A DNA stretch of 62,749 bases, the filler included, from Basidiobolus ranarum (taxonomy: Eukaryota), in assembly GCA_040143965.1 (NCBI GenBank). It is 18 parts of 18 records of this genome, joined end to end, with 100 filler letters (N's around TTAATTAATTAA, not from the genome) between each part and the next. Parts side by side here need not be neighbours in the genome. Positions count along the whole stretch, not along the records: positions 3,503 to 6,903 come from JASJQH010009386.1; 17 more parts are not named here. One strand, 5' to 3'. Shown one piece after another: positions 671 to 10,403 of the stretch. Positions within the stretch are counted from its first letter, which is position 1. Every line of letters starts with the position of its first letter. The notes beneath the pieces are model-generated. The model did no database searches, was not told where the DNA came from, and saw only the letters and a list, made by a program, of their open reading frames with translations. Position numbers and translations under genes: made by a program.

Positions 671-860
671 CTCTTAAGAATAAAGTAACTAAAATACACT
701 ATCTTAAGTTGCTTCTAATACCCAAAGTGTACCCCATTATGTCAAGATCCTCCAACAATACCAATACTCCAGAACTTCATATTTTGATCAAGAAACTACA
801 AAAGTAGTTATGGCTTCTTTGTTTTGTTTGAAATAAAGATTTTGTCTGTTGGTGACTGTC

Positions 861-2017
861 TCCCCCCTAACTGATGTGAAGAAACACTTGTTAGTTGGAA
901 TTGCCTTGGCTAAACAGGCTGTTCACAAGTTACTTGCTGTTACATCAACCAATACATCTTATCATGGCTGTCAAAGACTTCTCAAGCAGTTTGTGATACC
1001 AGTTCTGGAATATGGAGTACATCTGCTCCTACTCAACCAAAGAGACTACTCTAAGCTTGATAGATTCATCAGCTACTATCTCAGGCTACTAATGCCTGAC
1101 TTGCCTGAGACTGTTAAAGTATTTGGGAGCCTGTTAGAAGTGGTCTGTAGAATTAGAGGAATTAGTGGTTTTCACTTATTGATTTATTGAGTAGAAAGTT
1201 GAGATTTTTAGTTTTGTCAAGATGTAAGCAAACTAACATGTAGAATGTGTCAAGGGAGGTCCCAGGAACATGTGTGCAAAGTTTGGGGCTTCTAGCATAA
1301 GTTTGAAAAATGTTTACATCTGAGAACTTCTAAGTTGGTAAAAATATTTTAAGTAAATTCCAATTGAGAATGATGGATAAGATCTTAGTGAATTATAAGA
1401 TTACTAAGTACTAAGCTATATATGACTATATAGGTATTTAGGTAAAGCTAATTTCAACAAAGACTCCCTATCATCATGCTTTGAATGGAACTTTTGGAAT
1501 CTTCCCATATCATATTAGAGTAGTTTTACTCAGAGAAATATTTTTACTCCAACTACTTGACTGCAGAAATCCACTGATTAAGAAGTGGCTAGCCATACCA
1601 TATTCAAATGCACTCTCAGGCTGGAAACTGATACAAGATGATCCTCTTGTTTCTGAGTTAGCATTACAGCTGCATGAAACAAAACAGTCTAAAATTGTTG
1701 CTATAGACTTCCAGCTAGACCTTTGGAAGCAATACCTTACCTCAAAGACACCTTTCTTGATCCTCAGTATGCCAGGTTTTTGTCCTATTCTCCATTTAGT
1801 TTGTACTAAGTACCTTCCTTTCTGCTTACCATCTTGCCCCTTAACACTATATTTACATCCTCTGAACTTGATTACATTGGTAATCAAGTTAAATATGGAT
1901 ATGATCCAGTATTGTCACAATATTTTAGAAGATTGATGTCTTGATTGTCACTTTGTTTAGATTAGTATATAAGCTAAATAAAGTCTACACCATCTGGTGC
2001 CTTTCATCCCCCCTAAC
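861..2017 (+). mobile_element. 5'-truncated non-LTR retrotransposon (RT C-terminal part), copy 1, interrupted by a solo LTR
   Basis: ORFs 849-1190 and 1481-1936 match the RT of 5566-6511. Flanked by identical 11-bp TCCCCCCTAAC at 861-871 and 2007-2017. Confidence 0.9.
1112..1459 (-). mobile_element. Solo LTR (family A) inserted in the non-LTR RT
   Basis: TGTT...AACA ends with flanks GAGAC/AAGAC (5-bp TSD, 1 mismatch). The uninterrupted RT copy reads CCTGAGACTCCC. Homologous to 33600-33922, 29862-29960, 38452-38562 and 62640-62749. Confidence 0.9.
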
Positions 2018-3812: not shown

Positions 3813-4290
3813 AAACTGTTTGAGGAGAAGTAGATAACTGGCAGAGGAAGTAGTAGGGGGAGTAACAGCCAGTTGCTTGTGAAGAGCCTGCCTTGCCAAA
3901 ACCATTCTTTTCTTGAGGTGAGCAGCAGAGTCCAAGCCATTAAGAAGAAATGGGAATCCAAGGTAAGTAGCTTAGTTCTGAGCTGATATGGTTGAACCAT
4001 TCTAGGAGGGTGAGCAGCCTAGAGGAATGGTCATGGCCAAAGTGAGATGAAGCTTATTCTGCTGGAGATAACTGCTAATAGTGTCAAAGTCTTGTTGGAC
4101 AGGGTACATATTTTCTGGTAAGGGTAAGGGAGAGTAAGGATGAATGCAGGGGTTTGGGGGATGCAATCCCCCATGTACACCCTTCTGACACAATATACTC
4201 AAGTCACCAGTATATGGGAAGAATTGGGCTTCGCCAAATTTTCCAAAAGTCAGATCTCTGACCTGTGACACCTCTGAGGAAGAGACACTA
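3813..4290 (-). pseudogene. Decayed non-LTR RT fragment, a diverged relative of the 5566-6511 family
   Basis: Read through stops: DTISSYLQQNKLHLTLAMTIPLGC...ATYLGFPFLLNGLDSAAHLKKRMVLARQALHKQLAVTPP...LLKQF. This aligns to ATYLGFPFTQTGIDVKKHLSVRIALAKQAVHKLLAVTPP. Confidence 0.85.
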
Positions 4291-5020
4291 TTTCCAACAT
4301 TATAACACAGCCCATTCCTGCTTCCATAACTTTTATAAATTTTGAGAAATCTCTCATGTATTAATTATTTGTTTGATTTTGATTAATATGCAAGTCTCCA
4401 GGAAACAAAAGTGCAGATGTTTTCCTTCAGACTCTGAAAGCTTTTAAGTAATTTAATTAAACCTAAGTAGACCGGCTACTTTTAACTCAATAAAAACAAA
4501 TTACTTGTTGAGAATATCCTTTATATACTATTGAGAGTAATGAGGAAACTTGATTAACATCATGAATTAGTAATATTTGTAAGAACTTTGTAAATAATAC
4601 AAAATACAATTAAGAAGAAAGTGAATATTGGAGATAACATATAAATATTATAAATCTAGAAATATTGAAAGAGTTGATAAAAGCTTTTTATTCATATTTT
4701 ACAAATATTGACATATCACTGTCACTAAGCTCCATATATGTTTATTTATATACAAAGCAACAAAGTAGTCATTAACATAAGCTTTTGGGATATATAGCCT
4801 GCACAGCACAAAGGTGCTACAAATTTAACAAGTTGTATAAAATGCAATGTATTTATAACTTAGGTACTCCCAATAATATAAATAGAAGCAATGTGCACAA
4901 CAGAACCCTCTATAATTTCAAAAGATACTAACTTTTGAGCTGGGTAGTACTGGCAACATGCCTTTATGCATTGCCCCTGATTTTATGGGGGTTGTGTTGG
5001 TAGTAGACTGCTCAAAAACC

Positions 5021-5481
5021 ACTACAAACCTGAGCCTCTTTTTCAAAACTTGTCTACTTCTATAGTGTATATAACTGTTACCATGTCATCATATTGTTTC
5101 TCTGACTTTAAAGGAGTCACAAAGAGTGCTCATCGCTTGACATGCACTACAAACATAAGCCTCTTTTTAAACCATATTTACTTTTGGCATGCATATAACT
5201 GATACCATGTCAATATTTTTCACCTTTGATTTTATAGGAGTTATGAAGACCACTCATCCCTTAACATGCCCTACAAATGTGAGCCTATTTTTAAAAACAT
5301 ATTTACTTTTGGCATGTGTTTAACTGATACCACATCATCATTATATACCTTTGACTTTATAGGAGTTACAAAGAATGCTCTTCCCTTGATGTGCACTACT
5401 AATGTGAGCCTCTTTTTAAAAACATATTTACTTTTGGTGTGTGTATAACTGATACCGCATCATTAAATTTTTATCTTTGAC
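5021..5481. repeat. Tandem repeat, ~124-125-bp unit, ~3.7 diverged copies
   Basis: Motif ACTACAAA..AGCCTCTTTTTAAA..CATATTTACTTTTGG..TAACTGATACC recurs at 5021, 5146, 5270 and 5395. The last unit is cut by the retroelement tail. Confidence 0.85.
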
Positions 5482-6510
5482 TTAGGGCTAGGGCTAGGGG
5501 GGATGAAAAGCACCAGATGGTATGGACTTTATTTAGCTTAAATACTAACCTAAACAAAGTGACAATCAAGACATCAATCTTTTAAGATATTGTGACAATA
5601 CTGGATCATATCCATACTTAACCTGATGACCAATGTAATCAAGCTCAGAGGATGTAAATATAGTGTTAAGGGGCAAAGGTGGTAAGCAGAAAGGAAGGTA
5701 CTCAGTGCAAACCAGATGGACAATAGGACAAAAACCTGGAATAATGGGAATTAAGAAAGGTGTCTTGGAGGCAAGGTATTGCTTCCAAAGGTCTAGCTGG
5801 AAGTCTATAGCAACAATTTTAGGCTGTTTTGTTTCATGCAGCTGTAAAGCTAACTCAGAAACCAAAGGATCATCTTGTATCAATTTCCAGCATGATAGTG
5901 CATTTGAAGAAGGTGTGGCTAGCCACTTCTTAATCAGTGGATTTCTGCAGTCATTTAGTTGGAGTAGAAATCTTGCCCTGAGTAAAACTACTCTAATATG
6001 ATATGGGAAGAATCCAAAAGTTCCATTCAGAGCATGATCATAGGGAGTCTCAGGCAAGTCAGGCATCAGCAGCCTGAGGCAGTAGCTGATGAATCTATCA
6101 AGCTTAGAGTAGTCTCTTTGGTTGAGTGGGAGTAGATGTACTCCATATTCCAGAACTGGTATCACAAACTGCTTGAGAAGCCTTTGACAGCCATGATAAG
6201 ATGTATTGGGGGGTGTAACAGCAAGCAACTTGTGAACAGCCTGTTTGGCCAAGGCAATTCTAACTGACAAGTGTTTCTTCACATCAATGCCAGTTTGAGT
6301 AAATGGAAATCCTAGATATGTTGCATTGTTCATATGAAGAAGCTGAGTATCATACAAGGAAATAGTGCAACCAATTGGGATTGTTTTGGCAATAGAGAGC
6401 TCCAAGTTATTTTCTGAAAGGTATCTCTGAATAGTAGCAGTATCCAGCTGAGGCTGAGAAGTAGAAACTCTGATATCATCAGCAAATAAAGTAAGCAGAG
6501 ATCCAGGGGA
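5482..6510 (-). mobile_element. Non-LTR retrotransposon copy 2: open RT C-terminal ORF (5566-6510), 3' UTR and telomere-like tail
   Basis: LFADDI catalytic motif, YLGFPF (RT domain 7) and FVIPVLEYG thumb motif. Plus strand reads TTAGGGCTAGGGCTAGGGGGG at 5482-5502. The 5' end abuts a CACTA terminus. Confidence 0.92.
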
Positions 6511-6903
6511 CACCCTAACAAAAATTAAATCGATTTGATCCGGATTGGATCCACCCTCCAAAATAGCAAAACCATCAGAGAACCATCATAATATTGTTGG
6601 CTTGCATTCTGCCAGGGATTTTGATGGTGTGATGGCGGTTTCTTGACGGTATCTTGACGGTATTAATACATGTTAAAATATTGATCCTCAAATTTGGCAT
6701 GGGTTATTCAATATCCAGCAATTTTTGCAAAAATACAGTTTTCAAATGGCAAATTACAGGGCTTACTGCTGTAGGAATTTGAATCAATATGCATGCCTTT
6801 ATTTAGATATTTTAGGCTTTGTATTCCAGCCATAATGAGAATCAAAAAATACAACAATCTTACTGTGTTTAGTCTCTACATATGCACATATTTGACTGAT
6901 TAG
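6511..6903 (-). mobile_element. CMC/CACTA-like transposon right terminus (well preserved)
   Basis: Begins CACCCTAACAAAAATTAAATCGATTTGATCCGGATTGGATCC and carries subterminal ACCRTCA/TGAYGGT repeats. Confidence 0.85.
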
Positions 6904-7280: not shown

Positions 7281-9455
7281 CCAGCATGGATTCAGTCTCT
7301 CTTCTTTATACTTGTTATAAAATTTTTCATATCAAAATACAAAATCTTTGCGTAGTTGCTGTATCTGCCTGAGATCTGCCAACGTGAGTTGAAGCCATCA
7401 GAATACGTTAACAATATCCACTATCCACTCCCAATGTTGCCATTACTTATGATGCAGAAATCTTTTCAAGATTCCACTTGACTATATACGTGTCCAATAC
7501 TTCCAGTCTGTGCATATGAATAAATGCCTAGATGAGTGGATGTTGATGGGAGTGCTGGTAAAATATGATGGTATCTTGATGCTTTGAAGCATTTTCCCAA
7601 TCAATTTAAACTTTGATCCTATCTCAAATGGCTCATTCATATTGAGTTTTGCACTATATAGGTAATTAAGTAGTATTGGAATGTTGTTGAATAGTAAGTG
7701 CATAGTGCCTAATGGGAAGCTCTGGCTCTAGCTGATCCCCTTTAGCAATCTAATCTTAGGGTTAAGGCCAATACCAAGTTTGATGTTGGACTGATTATTT
7801 GGTGATTTGATTTCAGTGATCATGTTGAAATCTGACCGGGCTCTTGACAGAAAAATCATGGAGGTTAGTGTTGTATTTGGATAGTACAATGATACTAGCT
7901 TTAGTAAAATATTCATCCATCTGAACCCCATTGGATAGCCATTCAAATTTTACCATCAAAGGCTGCAAGAAACTATCTATAAGCACTGGGGATTTAGATC
8001 CAGATGTGATGGATAGTATCACAATATTATGACTCTTTTACCATTCAGAAGAAGGAACATCAAAGTTAATTCAAATCCTTGGCTGGCAAGCCTTGGCAAT
8101 GGTATATTTGTTTAGCAAGTAACCATCCAGAGCCAATGTAAATGAGTGATCATACATGTTCTCAAAGAAACCTTGACTTGTCAGATTCTGGTAGTGATAT
8201 CCATCAGGTATATTGGTAATACCATCAGCTGTACAGTGAGCACTGTGGTATTGGATCAATGATATATACTTGGGTGATTTCATCAAAACATTAAGATGGG
8301 GAATCAATGGTATGTAAGCCAAATATGAACAATATTTACCTGCTTCAGTGATTGCCAATTGTGTACAAAGAGTACATGACTTAAGGTTTTTCATATCACT
8401 GGTGAAAGCCAAACAACCATTTAGACATGAAGATAGTTTGATTACTGAAGGATCATAAGTTATACAATTAACAAGTGTTTTCCACTTGCACCAGGTCTGT
8501 GGCAAGCAACATTTGCCAATCAACTGTGGTAAAAGTTTTAGAGAATCAATAAACACCTGGTTGCTAAGATTGGATTGAACTCTCCACTCCTCTATCATTA
8601 AAGCTGCTTCTGTTACTCTGTTACTATTATGAGTGGACTAATGCTTGCCTATAACAGAGAGTCCATAACAAAACCTTCATCTTCTTTTTTGACTTCTGCT
8701 ATACTACCATCAGTACTGGACTGACCAAGGTCAACAACTAGCAGCATGTCCTCAAAGTAGTCTGGACTTTCTGGTTTGACCATAGTTGCATTTCTATCTA
8801 CATCATTCTGGTCATATAACTGTGGTAACTCCATGTTTTCTTGACTTTTGGCAGTGTTTCCAAAACTTTGAGGTAAAGTACAGTCAGTAGACTCCATGGG
8901 GAAAACTAAGTCAATTTTGTGCATTTATTACTGTTGATATTCACCAGGTTTTGTTCAGCTGGTTGCTTTTACAGTGACCATGCTTGTGATTATTTTTTCT
9001 ATGAATCCCCCGGCTTTCATAGCACAATAATTAGTGACAATAATTGCTGGGCTTCTTTCACTGTTTGTGTTGCAGCATGAGAAGGATATTGTGGAAAAAA
9101 AACACTTGCTACCTAAGGGTGGTATTTTAGGTATAGCTCATCAATAATATCAGCTGATTCTGACATGAAGTTACAGATGAGTCATCAGGGGATTTACAAG
9201 ATATTTCTGATAACAAATGGCAATTTTAGTTTATCATAAGCTCTTTCTAAGCAATTTCATTACACCAAGTTTACCCTCTGAAATTTTGATGCCATTCAAA
9301 AATTGTTCAAAATCCAAATCAAAATTGGCTTCCAAGCCCAAGCCTGCTGTCACAAAAGGAAAAAAACCAGCAAGAACAGAGTACTTGATTGTTGAGCAGT
9401 CTATCAATCAACTATCCACTTTGAAGGCATCAACATGCTGGAAACTAACTAGAGT
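7281..9455 (-). mobile_element. Degenerate CMC/CACTA (Tnp2/Transposase_21-like) transposase region plus start of a divergent second ORF
   Basis: CLNGC...CTLC, YIPLIPHL, FTLALDGY, ITSGSKSP, GTMHLLFNN motifs with stops and frameshifts. Confidence 0.85.
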
Positions 9456-10403
9456 ACCCTAACAAAAATAGAATTGATTTGATCCAGATTGGATCCACCC
9501 TCCAAAATAGCAAAACCATCACAGAACCGTCACAATATTGCTGGCTTCAATTCTGCCCGGGATCTTGATGGTGTGATGGCGGTTTCTTGATGGTATCTTA
9601 ACGGTATGCATACATGTTAAAATATTGATCCTCAAGTTTGGCATGCGTTATTCAATAACGAGCAATTTTTGCAAAAATATAATTTTCAAATGGCAAATTA
9701 CTGGGTTTACTGCTGTAGGAACTCAAATTAATATGCATGCCTTTATTTAGATATTTCAGGCTTTGTATTCCAGCCATAAGAAAAATCAAAAAATACAAGA
9801 ATCTCATTGTGTTTAGTCTCTACATATATAAATACTTGACTGATCAGACATAACTCAACAATGTCAATAGGCTTTACTAGCAAACTAATGGTGGAAAAAT
9901 TGCTTAACATCTGAAATTTTGAATAGCACTGACACTTGGCAAATAGCTGACTCTTGTTATGGTTCACAATGAGAATAAGCTCTTGGATTTTGGCAAATTT
10001 CCATAAAGAATTCAGCCAATATATCCCCAACTTGCAGTCAACAAATGTCCTGCCACAAGTGAATGTGTCATTGCTTGAATAAATTACCCCATGGCTAAAA
10101 TGATAATACTGCATATCTTGATCTATCTCACTAAGAAGTCTAACTTGCAGCTTTCCTAATAATACCATCAGATTATCACACTAGCAAATTAGTCCAATTA
10201 CAGAGGTACTTACTCTGTGTCCATGGATTGGGCTTTGTTGCTGTTATTGTGCTCAAACAATGCAAAAACCCATGAGCACATTGAAAAGAGCTCTTTGTTT
10301 GCAGGTTAATATACTCTGGAGTCTCCTTAACCCATTGCATTACATCCATCACTGATTTTGCTGATACATTGTTAATCAGATTAGCATATGGTAATACTGA
10401 CAA
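9456..10403 (-). mobile_element. Second CACTA copy (3' part and right terminus) nested in the previous one
   Basis: TACCCTAACAAAAATAGAATTGATTTGATCC terminus directly interrupts the second ORF of the host copy. Confidence 0.85.

Follow-up and report, generated by a model that had tools for sequence, protein, structure and literature searches.

A dispersed LINE family of Basidiobolus ranarum whose 3' ends carry telomere-type repeats

We report that three LINE copies in a 62,749-nucleotide stretch of Basidiobolus ranarum DNA (hereafter, the window; 18 parts of assembly GCA_040143965.1 joined end to end) are 5'-cut members of an abundant family, family A, whose copies are dispersed through the genome and not confined to chromosome ends. 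The telomere-type tails at the ends of these copies are confirmed. The best reading, to which we assign a probability of roughly 55%, is that the tail is encoded by the element, that cDNA synthesis is primed through microhomology of 1-3 nt, that slippage occurs in the tail, and that template jumping is frequent.

Results

LINE copies of the window

The original prediction, made from the window alone, placed telomere-type 3' ends on all three copies. These ends were found at the expected places and exceed chance, as the 3' module pattern matched three times in the window compared to 0.00 times in 100 shuffles. The features discussed below are:

758..871, plus strand: 3' end of family B with a C6-TAAC tail, head to tail with the family A copy starting at 872
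872..2017, plus strand: family A copy with tail TAAC and a solo-LTR-like insert at ~1112-1460
2002-2013, plus strand: 3' end of the 872 copy, TTTCATCCCCCC, ahead of its TAAC tail
3813..4099, minus strand: internal fragment of sister family B, directly abutting the passenger C tail and cut by an LTR-like insert
4100..5481, minus strand: piece of passenger element C, directly abutting the family A tail in the same orientation
5482..5496, minus strand: tail of the 5482 copy, TAGCCCTAGCCCTAA, with a variant unit present twice
5497..5533, minus strand: 3' module of the 5482 copy, with AATAAA, the CACC-N4-GGTG inverted repeat (TACC in this copy) and C6
5566-5568, minus strand: stop codon of the 5482 copy
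5497..6511, minus strand: 5'-cut family A LINE, with RT from FADD onward, helical C-terminal region and 3' UTR
6512..6903, minus strand: right end of a CACTA-like DNA transposon, ending TGTTAGGG and interrupting the 5482 copy
44924..45329, minus strand: family A copy with tail TAACCCTAACCCTAG at 44938-44924, stopping at an assembly gap

The tail of the 5482 copy, first placed at 5481-5496, runs from 5496 to 5482 on the minus strand, and the last G quoted for it (5481) belongs to the flank. The further claim that ordinary sequence continues past the tails fails for this copy, whose 3' flank is a family-related piece in the same orientation. Here, a minus-strand chain leads from A (6511-5482) through passenger C (5481-4100) to an internal piece of B (4099-3813). 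The 5' limit of the 5482 copy is the end of the inserted DNA transposon. The 44924 and 5482 copies are 99% identical, yet their tails differ.

Passenger C consists of ~126 bp tandem repeats, harbors a degenerate LINE 3' end internally, and terminates in TACCCTAACCC, a degenerate TACCC tail; no long ORF was found in the parts seen (window 4100-5481; L017, L022, L069, L115). The CACTA-like transposon (window 6512-6903 and 9451-10403, and many more; G000) is very abundant, with 1603 candidate right ends, and both of its ends read CCCTAACA inward, also a telomere-like hexamer. Elsewhere in the window, two long repetitive Ser/Thr/His-rich frames (40333-41889 and 48987-52346) terminate in a cysteine-rich module.

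ORF2 architecture and relatives

The window ORF by itself gave no match in Pfam or PDB. The upstream parts of family A were reached by walking via overlapping separate copies, and no contig carries a full-length A. This walk led from the RT start across a linker into an APE domain and as far as the end of an upstream ORF. Copies are truncated at the 5' side and keep a fixed 3' end: the genome holds 407 candidates for the 3' kilobase (40 of which were scored), 20 for the RT start and 3 for the ORF1 end. Family A encodes a non-LTR reverse transcriptase (Pfam RVT_1, E 1e-24), with L1 ORF2p and next R2 as best PDB matches. An N-terminal APE domain, proposed as a feature to look for, is present. 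In family B it lies in one open APE-RT frame of 746 aa. In family A, APE is joined to RT across overlapping separate copies; its Pfam scores fall below the curated cut-off, and its structural model (pLDDT 79) matches APE1 structures (E 5e-12). APE motif II usually has E, and that of family A carries D.

No REL, CCHC or RNase H was found in family A ORF2. The initial impression that a C-terminal CCHC or REL endonuclease is lacking was borne out, as Pfam reported RVT_1 only and the C-terminal region, modelled as all-helical, contains no conserved CCHC. Members of the RTE clade have a single ORF. Families A and B depart from this pattern: the end of an upstream frame, similar in both, directly precedes ORF2, and ORF1 was seen in pieces. 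Seven family sequences formed one long branch (support 100) with no resolved sister in a fast tree built from 266 RT rows without clade labels. Close relatives were five proteins of 59-64% identity plus proteins of Basidiobolus meristosporus, and all others fell below 40%. A and B appear to belong to a two-ORF APE-type LINE lineage that has so far been found only in Basidiobolus-like sequences. Two partial proteins deposited as Bacteroides fragilis (P0269 and P0275) cluster with the lineage, P0269 being 94% identical to P0003, and are probably contamination. CG dinucleotides are absent from four A and B stretches (window 5497-6511; L029, L140, L141), where 40-108 were expected.

3' module and tail

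At least five sister families carry a common 3' module, laid out as AATAAA, a short inverted repeat, C5-6 and then TAA(CCCTAA)0-2. The 3' UTRs of families A, B, D1, D2 and E are unrelated, yet AATAAA, CACC-N4-GGTG and the C-run are common to all of them. A 17-nt A-type core occurred 257 times in the genome (reversed control, 0) and the family B core 116 times (control, 0). Stem columns of the inverted repeat are less variable than inner loop columns and covariation was not significant; an RNA hairpin is plausible.

A-type tails were read at 96 ends from 90 loci, taken from the first 100 listed places with the largest contigs first and leaving out four places of the earlier family A candidate set; these ends comprise 75 of A, 8 of E, 3 of D and 10 unassigned. 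In phase with TAACCC after the C-run, 70/96 ends reach 3 nt, 26/96 reach 6 and 13/96 reach 9, with a maximum of 16 bases. One full CCCTAA unit is present in 70/96 ends and two units in 13/96, and 61/96 have nothing beyond TAA. For family B, whose first 30 loci gave 30 ends, 23/30, 13/30 and 9/30 reach 3, 6 and 9 nt. A poly(A) run of at least 6 was seen in 1/96 A-type ends. Tail length did not correlate with copy youth (rho 0.14, n=93). Some variant units are repeated (TAGCCC twice; TGACCC-TGACC), clearly in only two of 184 ends, which fits reiterative copying by the RT of the element and supports this part of the original prediction. In a metagenome scan of distant relatives (21-40% identical), C5-TAA was found in 0/46 readable cases, and a scan of prokaryote and viral contigs found no tailed LINE (one pattern match lacked a LINE).

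Telomere repeat and CCCTAA arrays of the host

The host telomere repeat is very probably TTAGGG, to judge from arrays of 18 and 12 units that extend to contig ends; a TERT is also present (Telomerase_RBD match above cut-off). These observations agree with the earlier view of the tail as C-strand sequence of what is probably the host telomere repeat. We read all 42 arrays of at least 3 perfect units in the assembly of 13,754 contigs and found 16 to be family tails, 19 to stand alone within unique DNA and 7 to lie at contig ends. Family copies are mostly internal, and 3/7 contig-end arrays abut family pieces, convincingly in one case. In C13172, 12 perfect units at the contig start directly precede a 5'-cut, 85%-identical family A copy, oriented as end addition would predict. 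Arrays in C10482 and C9095 precede family mosaics, the latter through a weak match (26 nt, E 0.007), and the four others join unique DNA. The 19 internal stand-alone arrays (L327, L329-L355; 0.001 expected) are candidate telomerase insertions or tail-only LINE insertions, and a second source of CCCTAA units may act in the genome.

Insertion sites

An unfilled homologue could be aligned for 50 of ~162 junctions. CCCTA or CCTAA preceded the junction in 0/50 of these inferred empty target sites, implying that the tail is not derived from the target and that telomeric DNA is not targeted as by TRAS/SART elements. Given these results, the dispersal of copies and tails of mostly at most one unit, the predicted pairing with telomeric G-strand primers is so far unsupported as the main route. 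Mean junction microhomology was 1.3 (n=28) and 1.5 (n=22) compared to a null value of 0.66 (p 4e-4 and 6e-5). Among 59 arrays we saw no target duplication; few of their 5' sides are readable and many are later TE insertions.

At 5' junctions, 21/40 are TE ends. We rejected targeting as their cause, as matching 3'-side interruptions with target duplications occur. GTTAGGG at 5' junctions was likewise rejected as a telomere cap, being a DNA transposon end with varied DNA beyond it in both orientations. Among 202 merged family blocks (75 or more), 24 end internally without a tail; some reflect later TE insertions and others join non-TE DNA. Tail-less internal pieces (L320, 1-109; L032) are also fused to apparent host genes, namely an ABC-transporter-like frame and a stretch that we take to be PEX5-like. 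A tRNA-Ser(AGA)-like gene with a terminal CCA has common flanks in several loci (L012 2505-2577, L110 72-144, L344) and is apparently carried by another repeat; a tRNA-headed SINE was rejected, as one further locus has the gene and these flanks but no family B.

Head-to-tail chains

Among the 126 ends, 28 continue in a further family piece in sense and 1 in antisense (a weak match), 9 continue in other TEs (4:5 in orientation), and 88 continue in other DNA, defined as DNA outside a library of family pieces plus four other repeats and often consisting of long unique contigs. Chains combine several families and include pieces down to 24 nt, and some are stacks built of pieces of 24-120 nt. In one chain, a 5S rRNA fragment that scores 32 bits, under the Rfam gathering score of 38, lies between a passenger C tail and an internal A piece. 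The leftover 5' part of the downstream partner was absent upstream in 3/3 readable chains (60-400 bases of the far 5' side). In 11 A-A pairs, the upstream copy was younger in 8, equal in 2 and misaligned in 1. Such unequal divergence is not what one-step jumping predicts. Ends near contig breaks also look younger (median 0.9 versus 3.6 differences), and age polarity within tandem pairs was rejected as confounded by assembly contig breaks.

Discussion

In the mechanism that we favor, element RNA would end in the conserved module plus ~1.5-2.5 CCCUAA units, its 3' end running past CCCCCCUAA into further units with no polyadenylation at CCCCCCUAA. ORF2 would bind the 3' module and begin cDNA synthesis within the tail, on DNA 3' ends, telomeric or otherwise, that offer 1-3 paired bases. 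Slippage during copying would add or alter tail units. The RT would often jump from a prematurely ended cDNA onto the 3' end of another RNA, from a sister family, passenger C or once 5S rRNA, yielding same-orientation chains that lack target duplications. The match of the tail unit to the telomere repeat was probably inherited from telomere-using ancestors or permits occasional end addition.

A different origin of the tails, which we consider unlikely but the strongest of the alternatives, is priming coupled to telomerase. Here, telomerase would first extend breaks, stalled cDNAs or chromosome ends with TTAGGG units, the CCCUAA end of the RNA would pair with these units, and the LINE RT would extend from there, so that tails and chain spacers are telomerase products and elements heal ends. 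The host TERT, the C13172 array, the family pieces at 3/7 contig-end arrays, the 19 stand-alone arrays and the lack of target duplications are in line with this model, as is the resemblance of chains with short-repeat spacers to Terminons as described in PMC6431247. However, repeated variant units, clear though they are in only two ends, are unexpected from a wild-type telomerase template, and 61/96 ends have no base past TAA. Moreover, in two of the three contigs where a terminal array abuts family pieces, the array could be the tail of an upstream copy that was lost where the contig breaks off. The match in C9095 is a weak one, and the other four contig-end arrays adjoin unique DNA. A bolder form, slightly less likely again, makes the lineage a mobile telomerase partner that copies multi-family RNA strings onto TTAGGG ends genome-wide, healing breaks and sometimes capping chromosomes. 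If true, this would be a Terminon-like role filled by a LINE enzyme with an endonuclease.

We regard as improbable that this is an ordinary stringent LINE whose microsatellite tail matches the telomere unit by coincidence and whose chains arose by strand-biased insertion into older copies. Such repeated insertion into older copies is the nesting seen with Zepp and Cnl1. Unequal divergence within pairs, the skew of C over G on LINE sense strands, and the other short repeats behind ORF2 in distant relatives are compatible with coincidence and nesting, and tandem-repeat tails are common among LINEs according to the account in PMC3747384. Nonetheless, one hexamer is kept in five families with unrelated 3' UTRs and in the passenger, leftover 5' parts are absent in 3/3 readable chains, a 5S piece was captured, and non-family flanks show no lasting strand skew. 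TRAS/SART-like targeting, in which APE cuts TTAGGG and the tail is duplicated target, is largely refuted by the 0/50 empty sites and the 88/126 ends in DNA outside the library, despite the APE, the many copies that adjoin another copy's tail and one short copy (L117) with CCTAACCCTA at its 5' junction.

An open-access literature search found no description of this lineage or of any dispersed APE LINE with telomere-repeat tails. Telomeric 3' ends have been published for Penelope-like and REL-type elements, fungi included. Stringent LINEs with tandem-repeat tails, such as UnaL2 (TGTAA) and the I factor (TAA), share with our family APE plus RT, a short structured 3' module, a slippage-linked repeat tail and the absence of poly(A), as PMC3747384 portrays them. 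Unlike these, the family A unit is the host telomere C-strand, the RT branch is long, and ~1/5 of ends lie in cross-family chains. Athena/Terminon elements, as presented in PMC6431247 and PMC12477314, also have a C-rich telomeric stretch directly after a 3' fold and 5'-cut head-to-tail chains with short-repeat spacers. By contrast, these Penelope-like elements have an endonuclease-less RT, and the Basidiobolus family has a LINE-type RT with APE and mostly internal positions; Rfam matches at 7 and 20 loci included no hammerhead ribozyme before the C-rich tail.

Among fungal non-LTR elements, family 4 of Zymoseptoria tritici, compared here by its description in PMC4522978, has 1-3 telomeric hexamers at the 3' end and tandem truncated copies. 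Its authors place it in subtelomeres only and interpret it as a Penelope-like element that lacks an endonuclease, whereas our family is dispersed and has APE. FoTeR 3' ends are followed by TAACCC units, but MoTeR/FoTeR elements, as characterized in PMC7367193 and PMC12857005, are telomere-restricted and have a REL endonuclease with CCHC, domains that family A lacks. TRAS/SART elements of the R1 clade are likewise APE-type LINEs tied to telomeric repeats; as summarized in PMC7367193 they target the repeat, which is missing from the targets of our family, and SART1 ends in poly(A) by the account of PMC3747384. Microhomology, internal starts, captured RNAs and the lack of target duplications recall endonuclease-independent L1 insertion and templated break patches as outlined in PMC5110952, although in Basidiobolus this looks routine and the APE motifs are largely intact.

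The family supplies 16/42 perfect arrays of at least 3 units, a way for interstitial telomeric sequence to arise other than insertion by telomerase. On the reading of an element-encoded tail, it would offer a natural example of a LINE RT that copies a template end resembling that of telomerase. Because the host retains TERT, marking either template would allow a direct test of how LINE slippage and template jumping relate to end repair of the telomere type.
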